NCBI GenBank assembly: GCA_035603475.1
Contig: DATNKH010000499.1
Location: 1 to 33,267 of the forward strand
Origin: Thermoanaerobaculia bacterium
GTDB taxonomy: Bacteria > Acidobacteriota > Thermoanaerobaculia > Multivoradales > UBA5704
Direction: 5' to 3'
DNA length: 33,267 bases
A program made the translations under genes and the position numbers. Shown here piece after piece: positions 5,675 through 31,580 of the stretch. Below the pieces are notes generated by a model that was given only the letters and a program-made list of their open reading frames with translations, ran no database searches and was not told where the DNA came from. Within the stretch, counting starts at the first letter, position 1. Each line of letters begins with the position of its first letter.

Positions 5675-6124
5675 ATGCGAGAGGCGGCGAGGAGATCGAA
5701 TCTGCAAAGGCCTTTTTTCGTGTTTCCCGGCGGGTGGCCCGGCACCGGTCTGCTGCTGTTGCGGGCGACCGTCGGCCTCACCGCGGTCATCCAGGGAGTA
5801 AGTCTGCTGGCCGGCCGCGCCTCCTCGGCACTGGGGCCGCTGGCTTTCGGCCTGGCGGCGACGGTGGGCGGAGCCGCGCTCCTGGCCGGGCTTCTCACAC
5901 CGGTAGCCGGCGCCCTGGTGGGGCTGGGAGCGATCGGCAAACTGCTCTCGGGGCCGCCGGTATCCATCGCCAACCTCATGGACAGCAGGCTGGCGGTCGT
6001 TTTCCTGGTGATCATGACCGCCGCCGTCGTTCTCCTGGGGCCGGGCGCCTGCTCGCTCGACGCCCGGCTGTTCGGGCGCCGCGAGATCGTCATTCCTCGC
6101 GCTGACCGGGCGCCGAAGGCCTGA
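5675..6124 (+). CDS. DoxX-like small integral membrane protein
   Basis: 149 aa with 3-4 hydrophobic helices. GLLLLRATVGL near the N-terminus and LLGPGACSLDARLFG near the C-terminus resemble DoxX-family signatures. Start codon uncertain. Confidence 0.6.
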   Translation: MREAARRSNLQRPFFVFPGGWPGTGLLLLRATVGLTAVIQGVSLLAGRASSALGPLAFGLAATVGGAALLAGLLTPVAGALVGLGAIGKLLSGPPVSIANLMDSRLAVVFLVIMTAAVVLLGPGACSLDARLFGRREIVIPRADRAPKA

Positions 6125-8077: not shown

Positions 8078-8737
8078 TCATGTGGGCCGCCGGCGCCTTT
8101 CCGCGTCGAGCCGCATCGCTGCGGCGACGAGCGGCTTGGCCCAGGTAGGAGTGGCCCTCAGGTCGCGGGGAGCCACGATCCTCCCGCGCCTCGAGTGGAG
8201 GAGGAGCACCGGGACCGGCGCGGCGCCGAGGTCGGGATCGGCGTTGGCACTGTTGTCGTAGACGCGCAGCTCCGTCAGCTTGGGAAGGAGACGAATCACG
8301 TTCAGACGGCCCGTCTCCCAGCGCCGGCGGATATCCGCCTCGGGGATGTCGTGCCCGCCCTTGGCGACCCGAGCGCGAACTCGCTCGAGATGCAGTTCTG
8401 GGCTGCTCAAGCCCACGTACCAGACGCGCACCTCGATGCCGAGCGAAGCCGCGCCGGCGAGAAGTGCCGGAATCGTAGTCGCCCCAAGAGTCGATTCGAA
8501 GGCGAGGTCGAGCCGCTCGGCGATCGCTCGCTCCAAGAGCCGCTTTCCCTGGCGCCACGCGGCGCTGTTCGCGTCATCCTGGGTGACGCGCGGATCTGCG
8601 GAGCGGATTCGGCGCGCCGCCTCGTCCGGGTTGAAGTAGTCCGCGCCGGTCTCGCGCAGCATGGCCCCGGCGATGCTGCTCTTCCCGGCCCCGTTCGTTC
8701 CGGCGAGAACGTAGATCCGGGAAGGCCGGCTAGCCAC
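8078..8737 (-). CDS. Zeta-toxin-family P-loop kinase (COG4185-like), type II toxin
   Basis: The conserved part starts at GTG 8737: VASRPSRIYVLAGTNGAGKSSIAG (Walker A) ...DLAFESTLG... The GTG overlaps the stop of the upstream Phd-like gene by 8 nt. The longer ORF to 8884 is antisense-overlap extension. Confidence 0.8.
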   Translation of the reverse strand: MASRPSRIYVLAGTNGAGKSSIAGAMLRETGADYFNPDEAARRIRSADPRVTQDDANSAAWRQGKRLLERAIAERLDLAFESTLGATTIPALLAGAASLGIEVRVWYVGLSSPELHLERVRARVAKGGHDIPEADIRRRWETGRLNVIRLLPKLTELRVYDNSANADPDLGAAPVPVLLLHSRRGRIVAPRDLRATPTWAKPLVAAAMRLDAERRRRPT

Positions 8738-9035
8738 GCTTCTTCGCCGCCGCGACCGCGGCCCGGCCGAGCCGAGCGGGCGTGGCGTTGAAGGCGTCTG
8801 CCATCCCCCGGCGTGCCGTCGATGTCTGCATGCGCGCGAGGAGCTCGTCGAACTCGCCGGTGAGTGTGTCGAGCGTCCGCTCACCGGCCGCGACCAGCGC
8901 GTCGAACTCGCCGATCGCCAGCAGCACTGCCTTCGGGGCGTCGTGCCGGGTGATCACGACGGCGCCCTTCTCGAGGGCGGTGTCGAGGACGCGGCCGAAC
9001 TCGTTCTTGGCGTCCGTCGCGGTGAACGTCGGCAT
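8730..9035 (-). CDS. Phd/YefM-family type II antitoxin
   Basis: MPTFTATDAKNEFGRVLDTALEKGAVVITRHDAPKAVLLAIGEFDAL is the canonical Phd/YefM N-terminal fold pattern. The ORF is also open from ATG 9080 (15 extra residues), so the start is ambiguous. Confidence 0.8.
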   Translation of the reverse strand: MPTFTATDAKNEFGRVLDTALEKGAVVITRHDAPKAVLLAIGEFDALVAAGERTLDTLTGEFDELLARMQTSTARRGMADAFNATPARLGRAAVAAAKKRG

Positions 9036-9082
9036 CGCTGCCCGTTCGCCCCCGCGGTGGTGGGAGATCGGTTTAGCCATGG

Positions 9083-9099
9083 TTGGCTATTATAGCCAA
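9083..9099 (-). promoter_or_regulatory. Perfect 8+1+8 palindrome TTGGCTAT-T-ATAGCCAA containing a consensus TATAAT on the minus strand; probable autoregulated TA promoter/operator
   Basis: Base-by-base pairing of 9083-9090 with 9092-9099 checked. On the minus strand it reads TTGGCTATAATAGCCAA, with TATAAT at 9094-9089. It lies 2 nt upstream of ATG 9080 and 47 nt upstream of ATG 9035. No good -35 seen. Confidence 0.45.
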
Positions 9100-9242
9100 T
9101 CTGGACGAGGGGGAACGGTCGCCGAAGAGCCAGTTTGCCGGAGGGAGCAGGTCCGCCACCCGCGGCCCTGCCAGAGGGGGGTTCCCGGAGGCTAGCGAGC
9201 CAAAGAGTAGATCCAAAGTCCAAGAACTTGCGACGCGACCGC

Positions 9243-11270
9243 TCAGGCTGGCTTCTCTCGACTGCGCACGTCCCAGGCACGCAGTCCATCATAGCTGAAG
9301 CCTACAAAGCATGAGATAGCCGCGTTCTCGTGGCGCCCTTTGGAGAACTCGCCGCGCCCAACCCGTCCGGCGGGGACAAAAAAGGCAAATACGCCACCGT
9401 CGAGCTCGATTTCGCCCGATTGAGGTGCCTCTATCTTTGAAATCCTACCGTCGAGTCGTTTCAGTCGCTCCGTTGATGACCAGAAATCAAGATCCTCTCT
9501 CCACTCTCCAAGCTCAGCCTGATGGACCAAAGCGAGAGGACCCGCCCCTTTCCCCACCCACTCGAAGCTCTTCGTTCGATTGCGACGGCCGCGTGCGATT
9601 TGGCGACATTCTGCCATGAATAACTCAGCTTCATCACGGTGCAGCTTCGAACCTTCCAAGGCTAGAATTGTGTGTAGTACGTATAAGTAATATACGGCAT
9701 CAAGAGCGCCAGACTTGGTCTTCCAGTACGCCACACGCTCTATTGCAGTTTCGATCGGAAGAGGCGCTGGAGCGTAACGAGCTGCCTGCAGCCAAAGCCT
9801 CAGATCGCGATCATTGTACGGATCTTCCTCGAGATTATCGTTGAGCAGTTGAAGGCTCCGCTTCACCTCCTTCGGGCTGAGCTTACTCCACGTCCGCTCG
9901 TGTCTAGCCAAGTACGTCCTGATGATCTGGCGTCGCAGGGGCGGCCGATAAGCGCCCGGCTGCGCCAGGAGGCCATCCCACGCTTGCAGGGCCCGCTCGT
10001 GGTCACCGTATAAGGCATCTAGTTTTGCCCGGCATTCGACTTCGAACAAGCTTGCGCGATCACCCTCGCGATTACGCCGGACCTGCTCTAGGAGATCTTC
10101 GGCTTTTTCTAGAAGCTCGCGCATCGCTGGATCAACTGACTCGCCCTTAAGGTAACTAAACGATCCACGCTGTGAGCTGCGACCTGCATAATCCATGAGC
10201 TTCGCTATAACCTGAACCTCGCTGATATAGCCATGCTCGTCATCAGGTTCAAGAACCCGGGCTCGCTCGAAGGACTCCCGAGCCGCTTTCGCTGACAAAG
10301 TGACCGCCTCGAGCTTTTCCTTTTCCATAATAAGTTGTTCCATTTCCTTGCGAAAGACCATTCCTTTCATGTGATGAAGTAGATGATCAGTGGGCTGCAA
10401 TGCGATGGCCTTATCGAGGCATTCGAGTGCCCGGATCGGATCGCGCATCTCAATTGAGTAAAAGCGCCCGAGATGTGCTAGAAAATGCGGCTCTTCAGGA
10501 CACTGGCGAACCAACTCTTGTAAAACCCTGAGACGCCCGTCCCTGGCTGGGATATCCTCCAGCAAGTGAGAGAACTTATTGATGGCGGCAACCTCGGAGC
10601 CGATAATGTTGCTACTGTCACGGTAGACGAACATGCGTCGGAGAATCTCCAGTGGCTCTTCGCCCACAGGCCCATCGCTCGCACTGCAGAGCTCCATGAA
10701 CTCAATAGCCCTCTGTGAGACTAATTGCTTCCAAAGGCGGCGATCAGACCCCGCGGGGGCAAGCAGCTGTTCTATAATCTCCAGTGCGATAAGTTCGTGA
10801 ATCGTTCTCCAATGCCCGTGCTTCTCCTCCAGTAACAATTCCAGGGAACCGGTGGGAAGAGCAACGTCAAGACGTACTGGGTGTGTGCCTACCAGCTTCG
10901 CAAAGAGGTCCACCGGAATAGCTCGTTGCGCATAGTGATGTACCAGCGATAGATACACGAGCATTCGCTTCGCTGACGGCTCCACTTCATTAATTCTGTT
11001 ATTTACATATGACGACAGCCCGCGGAAATCCCTGCCGAAGGCAGTCAAGCCGAAATAGAAAGCAGTCTTCTGCTTGGTCTCAGTGGTCGTCGCAACTTCC
11101 TGGAGCTTCGCGCGTTTCGAGGGAGCTATTTGGGAAAACATATCGACGAATCGTCTTACTTCAACTGAATCTAGCGTGGCGGGCAGGATATGCGAGATCG
11201 TTCGTTGAACCTCTCCGAAAGTATACCTGTTGTTGTCGGAGAAACTTTCCAAAGTCCTTTCTCGGAACAC
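9243..11270 (-). CDS. Large winged-helix-like + TPR-repeat protein with a C-terminal OB/cold-shock-like beta module; no NTPase motif
   Basis: 675-aa ORF from GTG 11270 (alternative ATG 11141). N-terminal KRMLVYLSLVHHYAQRAIPVDLFAKLVG resembles the WH segment of STAND proteins. TPR-like repeats are present (e.g. AHLGRFYSIEMRDPIRALECLDKAIALQP). C-terminus is GRISKIEAPQSGEIELDGGVFAFFVPA...AISCFVGFSYDGLRAWDV. No GxxxxGK[ST] found. Confidence 0.75.
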   Translation of the reverse strand: MFRERTLESFSDNNRYTFGEVQRTISHILPATLDSVEVRRFVDMFSQIAPSKRAKLQEVATTTETKQKTAFYFGLTAFGRDFRGLSSYVNNRINEVEPSAKRMLVYLSLVHHYAQRAIPVDLFAKLVGTHPVRLDVALPTGSLELLLEEKHGHWRTIHELIALEIIEQLLAPAGSDRRLWKQLVSQRAIEFMELCSASDGPVGEEPLEILRRMFVYRDSSNIIGSEVAAINKFSHLLEDIPARDGRLRVLQELVRQCPEEPHFLAHLGRFYSIEMRDPIRALECLDKAIALQPTDHLLHHMKGMVFRKEMEQLIMEKEKLEAVTLSAKAARESFERARVLEPDDEHGYISEVQVIAKLMDYAGRSSQRGSFSYLKGESVDPAMRELLEKAEDLLEQVRRNREGDRASLFEVECRAKLDALYGDHERALQAWDGLLAQPGAYRPPLRRQIIRTYLARHERTWSKLSPKEVKRSLQLLNDNLEEDPYNDRDLRLWLQAARYAPAPLPIETAIERVAYWKTKSGALDAVYYLYVLHTILALEGSKLHRDEAELFMAECRQIARGRRNRTKSFEWVGKGAGPLALVHQAELGEWREDLDFWSSTERLKRLDGRISKIEAPQSGEIELDGGVFAFFVPAGRVGRGEFSKGRHENAAISCFVGFSYDGLRAWDVRSREKPA

Positions 11271-11631
11271 ATGGGCCTAGGCGATCGGGCAGAATCTCAA
11301 TTACGCCGAAAGAGCGACCGTCACATGCCAAGGGATAATAGGCGAACCGTGGCACAGGATGAACTCTATCCGTGAATTGCTGCTGGAGGAGAGAATCATC
11401 TGGATGCGTGTCAACTCCCAGGAGTTCGGAGACGCCGTCAGCACTCCGCCGTACCCCGGTAATGATGAAGGCCGATTTATCGCGTGGAGTGTTCGCCATG
11501 CAGATGACGTCCTTAACCAACGTAAGGCCACTGTCATCGCCATGCGATAAGGGATATGAGGTCGACTTGAAATCGAGAGCCTCACCTTCGGGCATACTAA
11601 GGAGATCAAAGAAGTCTCTCTCGGTCAACAT
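11161..11631 (-). CDS. AlbA_2 (Schlafen-core-like) domain protein
   Basis: ATG 11631 is preceded by GGGAGGG; the track ORF starts at TTG 11643. AlbA_2-type pattern: EGEALDFKS..., LVKDVICMANTPRDKSAFIITGVRRSADGVSELLGVD, ...IEILP..., QQVYFRRGSTNDLA. Confidence 0.75.
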   Translation of the reverse strand: MLTERDFFDLLSMPEGEALDFKSTSYPLSHGDDSGLTLVKDVICMANTPRDKSAFIITGVRRSADGVSELLGVDTHPDDSLLQQQFTDRVHPVPRFAYYPLACDGRSFGVIEILPDRLGPCVPRKDFGKFLRQQQVYFRRGSTNDLAYPARHARFS

Positions 11632-11906
11632 TGGCCCTCCCAAGGTGTGACCCTCGGACTTTGGAGCGGCGAGGGCCGATCACGGACGTTCCTATATTCT
11701 CATCGAGTGACGGTTGCAAGCAATGGTATTGAGTAATTGCGATGTGCCAATGTCTCTTGAGCCGCGATCGGCGGCGCTCCTCGCTCTCCGACATTTACAG
11801 TAGGAGAGGCGCAGCAGTCCTATCAACGCGAGATGATCGGCGAGCGCAACGGAGGTCTCCAAGGATCTCCGCCGCGCGAGGCCCGTTCGGAGGGATTCGC
11901 CGGAGG

Positions 11907-14045
11907 TCACGCCGGAGGCATGCGGCAGGTGTCGCCGCCGGCCGCGGGGATGTAGCACTCCTGGACGTAGTCCATCACCATACGGTCGGCGTTGTAGCGC
12001 CAGGCGAGGGTGCGGATGGCCCGCTTGACCCTGGCGATCCAGCCGCGGGGCAGGCCGGTGTCGTCGCGGCTGTAGTAAAGCGGGATCACCTCGCCCTCGA
12101 GCAGCTCGAACAGCGCCTGGGAGTCGCGCTCGTCCTGCACGCCGGGATCGGCGTGTGACTCGGCGGCGCCGATGGCGAAGCCGTTGCTGCCGTCGAAGGC
12201 CTCGGCCCACCAGCCGTCGAGGATGGAGATGTTGAGCGCGCCGTTGAGGATGCACTTCTGGCCGCTGGTGCCGCACGCCTCGAGCGGCCGGCGCGGCGTG
12301 TTGAGCCAGGCGTCCACGCCCTGCACCAGCTGGCGGCCGATGAACATCGAGTAGTTCTCGACGAACACGATGCGGCCGGCGAAGCGCGGGTCCTCCTCCA
12401 GGCGGACGATCTGCCGGGCGAGCTCCTTGCCGCCCTCGTCCTGGGGATGGGCCTTGCCGGCGTAGATGATCTGCACCGGGCGCTCCGGGTCGCCGACCAG
12501 GCGCGCCAGCCGGTCGAGGTCCCGCAGCAGCAGGTCGGCCCGCTTGTAGGTGGCGAAGCGGCGGGCGAAGCCCAGGGTGAGCGTCTCGGGGCCGAGCGGC
12601 GGCGCCGCCGGCTCGGGCAGGCCCAGGCGCCGGTGGCGGTCGGCGAGACGGCGGCGGACGAACGCCATCACCTGCGCCTTGAGCACCTGGTGCACCTCCC
12701 AGAGCTCGGCGTCGGGAATGATGTCGATCTGTTTCCAGGTCTCCGCGCTGGCGAGGTTGTCGAGCCACCGTCTGCCCAGGTAGTGGCCGATGAGGTCCTG
12801 CATGTCGCCGGCCAGCCAGGTGCTCACGTGGACTCCGTTGGTGATGTGGCCGATCGGCACCTGCTCTTCGCGGAGGCCCGGGTAGAGCACCTCCCACATC
12901 TGGCGCGACACCCGGCCATGGAGCGCCGAGACGCCGTTCGCGCGATGGCAGAGCCGCAGCGCCAGCAGCGTCGGTCCGAAGGTGCCGGCCGGATCGAAGG
13001 GAGGCTCCGATCCCAGGGCCATCACCTCGGCGATCGGCAGGCCGAGGCCGGCGGCGAGCGGCTCGAGGTGCCGCTGCGCGAGGTCGGGCGCGAAGCGGTC
13101 GTGGCCGGCGGGGACCGGGGTATGGGTGGTGAAGACGCTGGCCGTCCTCACCTCACGCAGGGCGGCCGCGGCGGCGAGGCCGTCCTCCTCGACCCGCTGC
13201 CGCGCCCACTCGAGCAAGGCAAAAGCCGAGTGCCCTTCGTTCAGGTGCAGCACCGAGGGGCGGATGCCGAGCCGGCGCAGGGCGCGAAAGCCGCCGACCC
13301 CGAGCAGGATCTCCTGCTGGATGCGGGTCTCCTGGTCGCCGCCGTAGAGCCGCCCGGTGAGCTCGCGGTCGGTGGCGGAGTTGGCGTCGTCGCGGGCGTC
13401 GAGAAGCAGGAGATCGCTGCGCCCCACCTGCACGTGCCAGACGCGCAGGTAGACCTCGCGGCCGGGCAGCTCGACCGGGAAGCGCAGCTGCTCGCCGTCC
13501 GCTCCCAGCCAGGGGTCGACCGGCAGCTCCTCGACGGCGATCGGCTCGTAGAGGTCCTGCTGCCAGCCGGTGGCGTCGATCTGCTGGTGCACATACCCCT
13601 CGTGGTAGAAAAGGCCGACGCCGACCACCGGCACCCCCAGGTCGCTCATGCTCTTGAGGTGATCGCCCGCCAGCACGCCGAGGCCGCCGGAATAGATCGG
13701 GATCGAGTGGTGCAGGCCGAACTCGGCGGAGAAGTAGGCCAGCGGCCGGGCGAGCAGCGGGCCGGCGTTGGCGATCGCCCAGTCGGCGCCGCCGCGCAGG
13801 TACTCGCCGAGCCGGCGGTGGGCCTGGTTGATGCGGGTCTGCATCTCGAGATCGTGCACGCGGCGCGAGATGTCGTCGCCCTCCATGCGTTCGAGCAGGG
13901 CCACCGGGTTGTGGTAGACCGCGCTCCAGATCTCCGGCGCCAGCTCGCGGAAGATGGCGCGGATGTCCGGCTGCCAGGACCACCACAGGTTGCGTGACAG
14001 CTCGCGCAGCTTGCGCACGACGTCGTTGGTGCTCGAGTCGGTCAT
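11907..14045 (-). CDS. glgP: Alpha-glucan (glycogen/maltodextrin) phosphorylase, GT35
   Basis: 712 aa. LWWSWQP N-terminal motif of the short alpha-glucan phosphorylase family, YSGGLGVLAGDHLKS, and PLP-lysine region EACGTSGQKCILNGALNISILDGWW. Confidence 0.92.
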   Translation of the reverse strand: MTDSSTNDVVRKLRELSRNLWWSWQPDIRAIFRELAPEIWSAVYHNPVALLERMEGDDISRRVHDLEMQTRINQAHRRLGEYLRGGADWAIANAGPLLARPLAYFSAEFGLHHSIPIYSGGLGVLAGDHLKSMSDLGVPVVGVGLFYHEGYVHQQIDATGWQQDLYEPIAVEELPVDPWLGADGEQLRFPVELPGREVYLRVWHVQVGRSDLLLLDARDDANSATDRELTGRLYGGDQETRIQQEILLGVGGFRALRRLGIRPSVLHLNEGHSAFALLEWARQRVEEDGLAAAAALREVRTASVFTTHTPVPAGHDRFAPDLAQRHLEPLAAGLGLPIAEVMALGSEPPFDPAGTFGPTLLALRLCHRANGVSALHGRVSRQMWEVLYPGLREEQVPIGHITNGVHVSTWLAGDMQDLIGHYLGRRWLDNLASAETWKQIDIIPDAELWEVHQVLKAQVMAFVRRRLADRHRRLGLPEPAAPPLGPETLTLGFARRFATYKRADLLLRDLDRLARLVGDPERPVQIIYAGKAHPQDEGGKELARQIVRLEEDPRFAGRIVFVENYSMFIGRQLVQGVDAWLNTPRRPLEACGTSGQKCILNGALNISILDGWWAEAFDGSNGFAIGAAESHADPGVQDERDSQALFELLEGEVIPLYYSRDDTGLPRGWIARVKRAIRTLAWRYNADRMVMDYVQECYIPAAGGDTCRMPPA

Positions 14046-30398: not shown

Positions 30399-31580
30399 TT
30401 ACCGGGCTGGCGGTCGCAGCACCGCGTCCGGAACCGGCTCCCACCTGGCGTCTTCCAGCTGCTGCCAGCTGACGCGCCAGATCGGTTCTCCCAGCCCGCG
30501 CTCCCCGATGTAGAGACCGTCGTGGCCGGCCGCCAGGGCAATGCGGCCGGGCCCCGGCTCGAGCGCGGCGAGCCGCAGCCGAACGAGCGTCTCGCCGTCC
30601 CAGCGGTCGAGGGCCAGGCCCTCCGGTGCGTCCACGACGAGGTACACGCGGCGATCCTGGCTGGTGAAACCGCGGATGACCGGGACCGCGCGCGCCTTGC
30701 CGAGCATGGTGCGATTGAGCTGCATGCCAACCTGCTGCGCGCCCGCACGCTGCGCCCGCTTTTCGAGGGCTTGCCATTCCTCCTCGGACCGCTCCTTCCA
30801 CTGGACGGTGCCGCCACCCACGGCCACAGAGTCCTCCTCGACACCCAGGCTCGAGTAGTGGGTGAGGAGGTACGCATTCTGCTTCGCGACCCACACCGCA
30901 TCCTTACGATCCGGTGCCAGCCTCGTATCGCGTTCCCCCTTGAGGTCCACCAGCGACATCACCACTTCCGGTGGCCGCTCATTGCGCTTGTCCTTCGGTG
31001 TGACGGGTTTCTGTGTAGCCAGGGTCTGCCATGTCTGGTCATGCAGTTGCAGAATAAAGGGAGGAACACCTTGCTTGACGTGCGATCCAGATGCCGCTCC
31101 CACTGCCGAAACCGGCAACACCGCGATCATCGGTCCGTCGCCGGTATAGGCCAGCGCCGAGACCAACCAGCCGGCCGCCGGCAGCTCGTGGTGGTCATCG
31201 CCATGGAGGATGCTGAGATGATCAGGCGGGCTGAGAAGCAACCAAGAGCTCCCATCCGGGCTGACGACCGCCTCGATCACCGGCTGCGCAGCGGCCGCAG
31301 CCGCCTCGCCATCATGGGAGGCACGCTGGACGACGACCTTTCCGGAGGGCAGGATCTGGTCCACCTCGAGATTGTCGCCGTGCAGGAGAAAAACCCTCCC
31401 CTTGGCGTCTGCTTGGAGGAATTGAGGCGTGCGCGAGTTCTCGTGTGCCGGGTCGCCTGCGACGCGCTCGGGCGTGAGGCGGGCGTACGGCGCATTTCCC
31501 GCCGCGCGCCCACGGATCGCTAGCGCCACCAGCAGCAGAAGGGATGTGGTCGCGGCCCTGCTGAACCCTTGTTGACGCAA
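30399..31580 (-). CDS. Secreted hypothetical protein (393 aa), translationally coupled to the upstream Cys-rich peptide gene
   Basis: TTG 31580 is preceded by AGGAGGG (overlapping the peptide stop TAG) with a 7-nt spacer. Signal peptide MRQQGFSRAATTSLLLLVALAIRGRAAG. Protein-like, non-repetitive composition. No family recognised. Confidence 0.7.
   Translation of the reverse strand: MRQQGFSRAATTSLLLLVALAIRGRAAGNAPYARLTPERVAGDPAHENSRTPQFLQADAKGRVFLLHGDNLEVDQILPSGKVVVQRASHDGEAAAAAAQPVIEAVVSPDGSSWLLLSPPDHLSILHGDDHHELPAAGWLVSALAYTGDGPMIAVLPVSAVGAASGSHVKQGVPPFILQLHDQTWQTLATQKPVTPKDKRNERPPEVVMSLVDLKGERDTRLAPDRKDAVWVAKQNAYLLTHYSSLGVEEDSVAVGGGTVQWKERSEEEWQALEKRAQRAGAQQVGMQLNRTMLGKARAVPVIRGFTSQDRRVYLVVDAPEGLALDRWDGETLVRLRLAALEPGPGRIALAAGHDGLYIGERGLGEPIWRVSWQQLEDARWEPVPDAVLRPPAR

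Follow-up and report, generated by a model that had tools for sequence, protein, structure and literature searches.

Two overlapping open reading frames (ORFs), ORF1 and ORF2, lie on the minus strand of a 33,267-nucleotide (nt) stretch of DNA from a Thermoanaerobaculia bacterium (contig DATNKH010000499.1, positions 1 to 33,267; this whole stretch is referred to as the window). The two ORFs correspond to the opposite ends of one family of large proteins, the bacterial SAMD9-like proteins that have been named Avs9, and the central domains of these proteins are missing between them. The locus is very likely a horizontally acquired Avs9/bacterial SAMD9 gene that has suffered an internal out-of-frame deletion and is now most likely a recent pseudogene. 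A first-pass annotation of the same DNA had proposed a different reading, in which an AlbA_2/Schlafen-type effector and a partner with winged-helix-like, TPR-like and OB-like parts form an undescribed defence module that dispenses with the usual NTPase switch.

The two ORFs and the boundary between them are as follows (positions are those of the window):

11631-11161, minus strand: ORF1, 156 residues from the ATG (160 residues if the TTG at 11643 is used)
11270-9243, minus strand: ORF2, 675 residues
11176..11196, minus strand: deletion junction, best estimate 11185/11186 (± ~10 nt), where homology passes from frame −1 to frame −2

ORF1 and ORF2 are the two ends of one interrupted gene

ORF1 and ORF2 overlap by 110 nt in different reading frames. 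A search with ORF2 identified 84 homologues, the complete ones of which are 1,150–1,180 residues long and carry both an AlbA_2 domain (PF04326) and an nSTAND_NTPase5 domain (PF25199). Residues 13–153 of ORF1 are equivalent to residues 7–145 of one such relative, P0051 (56% identity, BLASTP), and residues 29–612 of ORF2 are equivalent to residues 572–1157 of the same protein (44% identity). ORF2 is also 55% identical to a second relative, P0002, across 647 residues, and the retained parts of both remnants are 43–56% identical to full-length relatives. Since both ORFs match opposite ends of the same proteins, with the frame switching inside their overlap, they represent one broken gene.

The switch can be followed directly on the DNA by tblastn. 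P0051 residues 7–145 align with positions 11607–11185 in frame −1, while residues 572–1157 align with positions 11186–9435 in frame −2, and the same frame switch is obtained with P0067 and P0002. The intervening residues of P0051 (146–571, the SIR2-like and NTPase regions) have no tblastn match anywhere in the 33-kb window, whether at the locus or translocated elsewhere, and no segment resembling a GGT-type P-loop is present in the window in any frame (tblastn). The portion missing at the junction amounts to ~420–426 codons (~1.26–1.28 kb) and comprises the SIR2-like domain and the P-loop NTPase. In the alignment with intact relatives, the homology of ORF1 ends at the invariant ...YFRRGSTNDLAYP, and that of ORF2 begins at LPATLDSVEVRRF, a motif located directly after the NTPase in the relatives. 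Between these two points, the relatives contain ~280 residues with a ..PW..V.DFDP.SD.. block, followed by the NTPase (Walker A, HxPGAGGTT; Walker B, hhhhDG).

Two other interpretations of the junction region were considered and rejected. The segment QRTIS in the ORF2 frame (residues 22–26) resembles RERTIS and AERTTS in two relatives and could be mistaken for homology upstream of the junction; in the frame of ORF1, however, these bases code for the invariant RRGSTNDLA, and the resemblance is treated as coincidental. The position of the junction is uncertain by ~10 nt because of this chance likeness. A programmed +1 frameshift at the stop codon of ORF1 (..TTC AGT TGA A..) was dismissed on the sequence alone, as neither a slippery or prfB-like context nor a Shine-Dalgarno stimulator is present upstream of or at this site.

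An exact look-up of ORF1 located identical sequence, including the junction, in two further contigs: a Logan assembly of ERR1700724 (4,545 nt, equivalent to positions 12012–7468 of the window) and a Joint Genome Institute (JGI) contig of sample 3300001150 (924 nt), both with 100% identity. An error confined to one assembly is thus unlikely, as the junction recurs unchanged in two others. These two copies are the ones available for comparison, and the next relative is only 55% identical. An exact-sequence look-up of ORF2 (P0001 and the 675-residue version) returned no contig.

Domain content of the remnants

The segments of the broken gene, together with a candidate promoter, are as follows:

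11723..11750, minus strand: sigma-70-like promoter match (TTGGCA, 16-nt spacer, TACCAT), upstream of ORF1
11161..11631, minus strand: ORF1, the 5' remnant of the gene; residues 1–149 form a complete AlbA_2/Schlafen-type domain
11187..11270, minus strand: 5' extension of ORF2, in which the last part of the AlbA_2 coding sequence is read out of frame
10554..11186, minus strand: helical and winged-helix-like segment, ORF2 residues 29–240; the region directly after the NTPase in intact relatives
9591..10553, minus strand: TPR-like helical repeats, ORF2 residues ~240–560; presumed sensor
9243..9590, minus strand: beta-rich C-terminal module, ORF2 residues ~561–675 plus the stop codon; OB-like domain of the SAMD9 family

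ORF1 matches the Pfam family SLFN_AlbA_2 (PF04326) with an E-value of 8.2e-12 (46 bits, cut-off 25.3), covering profile positions 1–115 of 118. Its AlphaFold2 (AF2) model has a predicted local distance difference test score (pLDDT) of 85, and a Foldseek search with this model matches the AlbA_2 structures 3lmm and 2kyy, as well as the SAMD9 tRNase domain 9o0d. ORF1 also matches the PADLOC candidate PDC-S50 (E = 3.5e-13) at profile positions 12–147 of 387, which is the AlbA_2 part only. After the AlbA_2 domain, the frameshift produces a tail of ~7 unrelated residues (ARHARFS), followed by a TGA stop. A GGGAGG Shine-Dalgarno-like motif is located 4 nt upstream of the ORF1 ATG. The sigma-70-like site agrees with the consensus at 9 of 12 positions and is the only candidate promoter for the remnant; three such sites occur in the region compared to 1.4 expected, so that the match is weak evidence.

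The beginning of ORF2 is of a different nature. Residues 1–28 have no homologue in the relatives and are modeled with a pLDDT below 50, and three gene callers disagree on the start (GTG at 11270, TTG at 11252 and ATG at 11141, giving 675, 669 and 632 residues, respectively). With a start in the wrong frame and disagreeing gene callers, ORF2 has no defined start. From residue 29 onwards, the protein follows its relatives. The helical and winged-helix-like segment opens with a conserved L-x-x-x-L-S-x-x-E-x-x-R-F motif and is also covered by the hidden Markov model (HMM) alignment to SAMD9; the AF2 model (overall pLDDT 85) places helices at residues 35–127, strands at 146–148 and 153–156, and helices at 159–239. 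Paired helices follow at residues 243–558 (~320 residues), where Pfam TPR matches are sub-threshold (residues 264–308). The C-terminal module contains strands at residues 570–573, 581–583, 606–631 and 651–670, and is collinear with a second HMM stretch corresponding to SAMD9 residues 1332–1448 (...YLGFSxxG...). A cold-shock-like OB fold occupies the C-terminal position in the SAMD9 family (Mekhedov 2017, PMC5445408). ORF2 has no match in PADLOC, and NCBIfam yields nothing useful for either ORF.

The domain assignments of the first-pass annotation are borne out by these results. It had recognized an AlbA_2-type pattern in ORF1, to be checked by structure prediction and Foldseek, and both the Pfam match and the structural matches agree with it. 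It had compared the start of ORF2 to the post-NTPase part of a STAND protein, which is where the alignment with intact relatives places it, and its TPR-like repeats and beta-rich, OB-like end are recovered in the AF2 model and in the Foldseek and HMM matches to SAMD9.

The gene belongs to the bacterial SAMD9 (Avs9) family

A profile built from 13 full-length relatives matches human SAMD9 with an E-value of 4.3e-38, across the SIR2-like, P-loop and TPR regions. The SIR2-like block is aligned to SAMD9 residues 271–570, the P-loops are superimposed (LYHePGaGGTT in the profile and LYHHPGCGGTT in SAMD9), and a second collinear stretch corresponds to the C-terminal OB fold of SAMD9. The structural comparison is in agreement: the top seven Protein Data Bank (PDB) matches to the ORF2 model are human SAMD9 structures determined by cryo-electron microscopy (best E = 3e-17). 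The closest four have template modeling (TM) scores of 0.56–0.58 over ~745 aligned columns, and generic TPR proteins come next, at E ~1e-6.

All full-length homologues have the P-loop HxPGAGGTT, in which glycine replaces the Walker A lysine exactly as in animal SAMD9 (alignment A3, profile positions ~470–485). This unusual GGT/S Walker A with a conserved upstream histidine is a published signature of the SAMD9 family, whose core consists of AlbA_2, a variant Sir2, a STAND-like P-loop, TPR and OB parts, and which includes reported bacterial members (Mekhedov, Makarova & Koonin 2017, PMC5445408). The first-pass annotation had based the lack of an NTPase on the absence of a canonical Walker A. 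A pattern search for GxxxxGK[ST] indeed finds no match in ORF1 or ORF2; since the intact relatives also lack the canonical GK[ST], the pattern cannot show that the NTPase is absent, and it is the homology that does so.

Bacterial members with an AlbA_2 domain have been named Avs9 and were found associated with defence systems (Legrand et al. 2025, PMC12680541); the name is also used in a 2026 survey of STAND defence proteins. Avs9 from P. fluorescens, or its AlbA_2 domain alone, is lethal to E. coli unless D45 is mutated; toxicity was reported for the P. fluorescens protein only, and the study did not yet demonstrate activity of Avs9 against phages (PMC12680541). Schlafen-type nucleases are established antiphage effectors (PMC13056530). 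The kinship to STAND/Avs antiphage proteins that the first-pass annotation saw in the effector and sensor parts therefore stands, by homology to the Avs9/SAMD9 family, while its view that the composition is undescribed is superseded by the two reports on this family (PMC5445408, PMC12680541).

Compared to the defining features of the family, the window locus has the AlbA_2 domain, the TPR array, the C-terminal OB fold and homology over all retained parts. It lacks the SIR2-like domain and the P-loop NTPase, and the remaining parts are not joined in a single polypeptide. As the NTPase has been deleted, we class the locus as a remnant of an Avs member and not as a functional member. Its intact relatives share with Avs9/bacterial SAMD9 a single polypeptide of ~1,200 residues with the order AlbA_2, SIR2-like, P-loop, TPR and OB, a GGT Walker A with an upstream histidine, and an occurrence in diverse phyla, apparently often beside known defence genes. 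Human SAMD9 and SAMD9L are more distant (~15% identity), and the bacterial proteins differ from them in lacking a SAM domain and in having a shorter AlbA_2; AlbA_2 joined the human and bacterial lineages independently, according to Legrand et al. (PMC12680541).

Other defence proteins share parts of this architecture. In Avs5 and Avs6, the STAND core and the sensor are described in the literature as resembling SAMD9 in structure, but these proteins carry SIR2 or PNP effectors in place of AlbA_2. Prokaryotic Schlafen defence proteins (Nat Microbiol 2026, PMC13056530), bNACHT34 and PDC-S50 have in common with ORF1 an N-terminal AlbA_2/Schlafen effector, which is combined with variable sensors; their C-terminal partners differ (Ig-like, NACHT and others), and PDC-S50 corresponds to the AlbA_2 part only. 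Dsr1 is an effector-sensor protein without a STAND NTPase that shares the Avs7 sensor (PMC13581612). It demonstrates that a STAND-type sensor can work with an effector in the absence of an NTPase, the arrangement proposed by the first-pass annotation. However, Dsr1 is a conserved single-polypeptide family, whereas the arrangement in the window is a one-off product of an out-of-frame deletion. None of the AVAST families among the PADLOC models matches the full-length relatives at E ≤ 0.01.

Layout of the locus among relatives

To survey the layout of related loci, one genome per species was scanned, the four modules were located by tblastn, and the open frames were checked. The resulting 73 loci are from Acidobacteriota, Chloroflexota, Planctomycetota, Cyanobacteria, Proteobacteria, Actinomycetota, Bacteroidota and other phyla. 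The SIR2-like, NTPase and C-terminal parts reside in a single open frame of 1,123–1,575 residues at 58 of them (48 pass a strict filter). Of the remaining loci, three run off the end of their contig, and frameshifts or fragmentation have visibly degraded the other 12. A clean AlbA_2 gene beside an NTPase-less TPR gene was found at none of the 73 loci.

A second survey approached the question from the effector. With ORF1 as the query, an exhaustive HMMER search of 1.84 billion representatives returned 1,667 matches at E ≤ 1e-3, from which 149 new top matches were classified. Among these AlbA_2 relatives, 36 are full Avs9-type proteins and 35 are fragments consistent with this type; in the other 78, no SIR2-like, NTPase or TPR-OB part could be detected beyond the AlbA_2 domain, and these are presumably proteins with other partners, or fragments. 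AlbA_2 is joined directly to a TPR-OB part in none of the 149. An earlier word-indexed homologue search with ORF1 had returned a single uninformative fragment and is superseded by this search.

The lack of an NTPase, which the first-pass annotation took as a feature of the design, is thus the outcome of a deletion of ~420–426 codons with a frameshift, and is not conserved as a layout in either survey. The annotation had proposed to test whether the two parts are conserved as a pair or fusion. Both parts are fused in the single proteins of relatives, with the SIR2-like domain and the NTPase in between, and the clean two-gene layout occurs at none of the 73 loci.

One split copy is present on the 6.9-Mb chromosome of a Hormoscilla metagenome-assembled genome (MAG; L001 6331–10070, also L041). 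It is divided inside the NTPase into a 499-residue AlbA_2 ORF and a 689-residue ORF, 170 nt apart, and is either a frameshift pseudogene or the result of a long-read sequencing error.

Most of the 58 single-frame loci have the AlbA_2 domain at the N-terminus, whereas those from actinomycetes and a small number of others begin with a different and longer N-terminal part. These long homologues (L053–L059, L062, L065, L071 and L073 from actinomycetes, and L040, L042 and L046) have 820–900 residues upstream of the C-terminal region, and AlbA_2 is detectable in none of them except L046, where it lies within the longer open frame. Actinomycete members of the SAMD9 family with a kinase were described by Mekhedov et al. 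(PMC5445408), and the long homologues presumably include such kinase-bearing or other N-terminal variants. Very similar AlbA_2 domains (40–57% identity) also occur at the N-terminus of proteins of 250–540 or 1,030–1,524 residues, such as P0090, P0105, P0164 and P0200, that lack SAMD9-type SIR2-like, NTPase and TPR-OB parts, indicating that the same effector is fused to other partners.

Members of the family occur in eight or more phyla, and one is located on a cyanobacterial plasmid (L018). This distribution, along with the ~12 of 73 copies that are broken, suggests frequent transfer and frequent loss, although some of the 12 breaks may be errors in long-read MAGs. Large ORFs adjoining some of the homologues were tested as possible paralogues and are not. 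Among the 139 nearest-neighbor ORFs of 35 intact loci, strong PADLOC matches include BrxHI, GajA, type III and type IV restriction enzymes, RmrA/T, SngC, AbiEi and HEC-06; this was a rough check with no background control.

Composition and likely origin

The gene remnant coincides with a region of atypical base composition:

9200..11700, no strand: low-GC islet, 53–59% GC in a contig of ~70% GC (composition profile)

The GC content at third codon positions (GC3) is 0.53–0.58 in the ORF1 and ORF2 remnant, compared to 0.83–0.95 in all flanking genes, including the adjacent toxin-antitoxin (TA) pair. This low GC and GC3 indicates that the gene was probably acquired by recent horizontal transfer. 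The TA pair has native GC3 values (0.83–0.90) and was therefore not acquired together with the remnant. A tRNA gene was sought at the island borders and none was found; direct repeats flanking the remnant were also sought, with none convincing, and there is no integrase among the window ORFs scanned. A 13-nt inverted repeat (12 of 13 positions complementary) at 9212–9224 and 11653–11665, just outside both ends of the remnant, is probably due to chance.

Alternative readings of the locus

A number of observations weigh against a plain loss of function. Beyond the deletion itself, neither remnant contains further stops or frameshifts. The E15-x4-D20-F-K and K40-D41 motifs of ORF1 are conserved in all aligned relatives, and ORF1 retains a good Shine-Dalgarno motif and a promoter-like site, while ORF2 retains all 34 invariant columns of a 25-sequence alignment. 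The ATG at 11141 is located 20 nt beyond the ORF1 stop, and re-initiation there could yield a 632-residue sensor fragment. NTPase-less effector-sensor proteins are known in other families (e.g. Dsr1, PMC13581612), scattered domain losses in the Avs9/SAMD9 family have been reported by Legrand et al. (PMC12680541), and the family contains two other NTPase-less copies, P0047 and L068, both in-frame losses. P0047 (L077 434–3373, JGI 3300009709) is a complete gene of 979 residues on a single 3.5-kb metagenome contig, with an in-frame gap that opens shortly ahead of the Walker A (..RVNLYH) and closes at the equivalent of ORF2 residue 135, so that the NTPase core is lost. L068 9407–12536, from a Vicinamibacterales MAG (OZ242279.1), has undergone an independent in-frame loss of the last part of AlbA_2 together with the SIR2-like domain and the greater part of the NTPase, and its TPR region is interrupted by a transposase-like ORF of 592 residues. 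Finally, the samples behind the three assemblies that share this sequence may be related to one another. As both remnants are otherwise undamaged, the deletion either happened very recently or left pieces on which selection still acts.

One alternative is a partial function, in which ORF1 alone would be expressed as an unregulated Schlafen-type nuclease (toxin-like, or a low-level effector) and ORF2 is untranslated debris. ORF1 has kept its original start, Shine-Dalgarno motif and promoter-like site, and its AlbA_2 domain is complete (Pfam positions 1–115 of 118). There are also precedents for activity of such a fragment, as the AlbA_2 domain of P. fluorescens Avs9 killed E. coli on its own (PMC12680541), and human SAMD9L truncations that remove the C-terminal half are gain-of-function alleles (PMC10246899). 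However, selection should act against a nuclease that is always active, and nothing in the vicinity resembles a dedicated inhibitor. Both expression and activity of ORF1 are putative. The acidic residues of Avs9 (E14, D19, D45 and E65) can be mapped onto ORF1 by spacing only, and by this mapping the fourth position, equivalent to E65, is apparently non-acidic (GVRR). Overall, we regard such a partial function as improbable.

The first-pass proposal itself, a working two-gene and NTPase-independent defence module with a free AlbA_2 nuclease (ORF1) controlled in trans by the winged-helix-TPR-OB protein (ORF2), is very improbable. Both ORFs are intact and keep the residues conserved in the family, the ATG 20 nt past the ORF1 stop could permit coupled translation, other family copies without the NTPase exist (P0047 and L068), and so do NTPase-less proteins that share an Avs sensor, e.g. 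Dsr1 with the sensor of Avs7 (PMC13581612). Against this, the layout is seen in the sequence of one strain only and is absent from the 73 loci and the 149 representative relatives. The 110-nt out-of-frame overlap with the homology hand-over inside it is the signature of a deletion and not of an operon junction, and neither the N-terminus nor the start of ORF2 is conserved. In L068, the further disruption by the transposase ORF points to decay rather than a new architecture.

A variant of this idea accepts the deletion and supposes that the resulting allele is still alive, as a naturally split, NTPase-independent Avs9/SAMD9-like derivative in which the fragment from the ATG at 11141 would restrain or release the ORF1 nuclease in trans. 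We give it a very slim chance. If it were true, the split allele would parallel, in a bacterium, the truncation alleles of human SAMD9L and the relationship between Avs7 and Dsr1.

An assembly or sequencing artefact that hides an intact gene or an in-frame deletion is scarcely credible: mis-assembly of a metagenome-type contig such as this can create internal deletions and a single-base error can change the frame, but the junction and 4.5 kb around it are unchanged in the ERR1700724 Logan assembly, the junction recurs in the 3300001150 JGI contig, these assemblies come from different pipelines, and the junction itself is free of repeats and long homopolymers.

Proposed mechanism and implications

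A recent pseudogene of an Avs9/bacterial SAMD9 gene thus remains by far the most probable interpretation, and the effect of the deletion can be outlined as follows. Loss of the SIR2-like and NTPase domains with a shift of frame would cause translation from the original start to end 7 codons past the junction, so that ORF1 is an AlbA_2 domain by itself. What is left of the coding sequence, the 647 codons in ORF2, would be an open remnant that lacks its own start signal.

The mechanism of the intact protein is suggested by analogy to SAMD9/SAMD9L and other Avs proteins. The TPR/OB end would bind an infection cue, upon which the nucleotide-bound STAND module would oligomerize. The AlbA_2 nuclease would then be released to cut tRNA, and translation would stop, resulting in abortive infection. 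In the window copy, the oligomerization module is gone and the effector and sensor would be on separate polypeptides, such that the signaling chain is expected to be broken. We infer that this copy has lost its function.

The missing switch at this locus would then reflect gene decay and not invention. More generally, a defence-like gene pair that lacks a core domain should first be compared with full-length relatives for an internal deletion. Avs9/SAMD9-like genes appear to be mobile and often inactivated, given their occurrence in many phyla, the foreign GC content observed here and the ~12 of 73 broken copies, a pattern that fits costly abortive-infection genes. The deletion has also left a natural allele in which a complete AlbA_2 domain stands alone and retains its start signals. 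The equivalent part of P. fluorescens Avs9 is lethal to E. coli, and comparable truncations of human SAMD9L are gain-of-function, so that tolerance of the fragment by its host could be of interest for work on SAMD9.

Genomic neighborhood

Ten other large ORFs of the window were compared with Pfam. Eight belong to housekeeping families, namely a two-component system, an alpha-glucan phosphorylase-like protein, an alpha-amylase-family glycoside hydrolase, a debranching enzyme, CheR, a hybrid kinase and HtpG. The other two, at 5675–6124 (plus strand, 149 residues) and 30399–31580 (minus strand, 393 residues), have high GC3 and no Pfam match at E ≤ 1e-5.

The TA pair located next to the remnant was identified with Pfam:

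8730-9080, minus strand: Phd/YefM antitoxin gene
8078-8662/8884, minus strand: zeta-toxin/AAA_33-like P-loop kinase, the partner toxin

A perfect 17-nt palindrome, TTGGCTATAATAGCCAA, at 9083–9099 contains a TATAAT that is located only 8 nt before the antitoxin ATG. This palindrome is probably an operator or promoter, and the antitoxin mRNA transcribed from its TATAAT may be leaderless.

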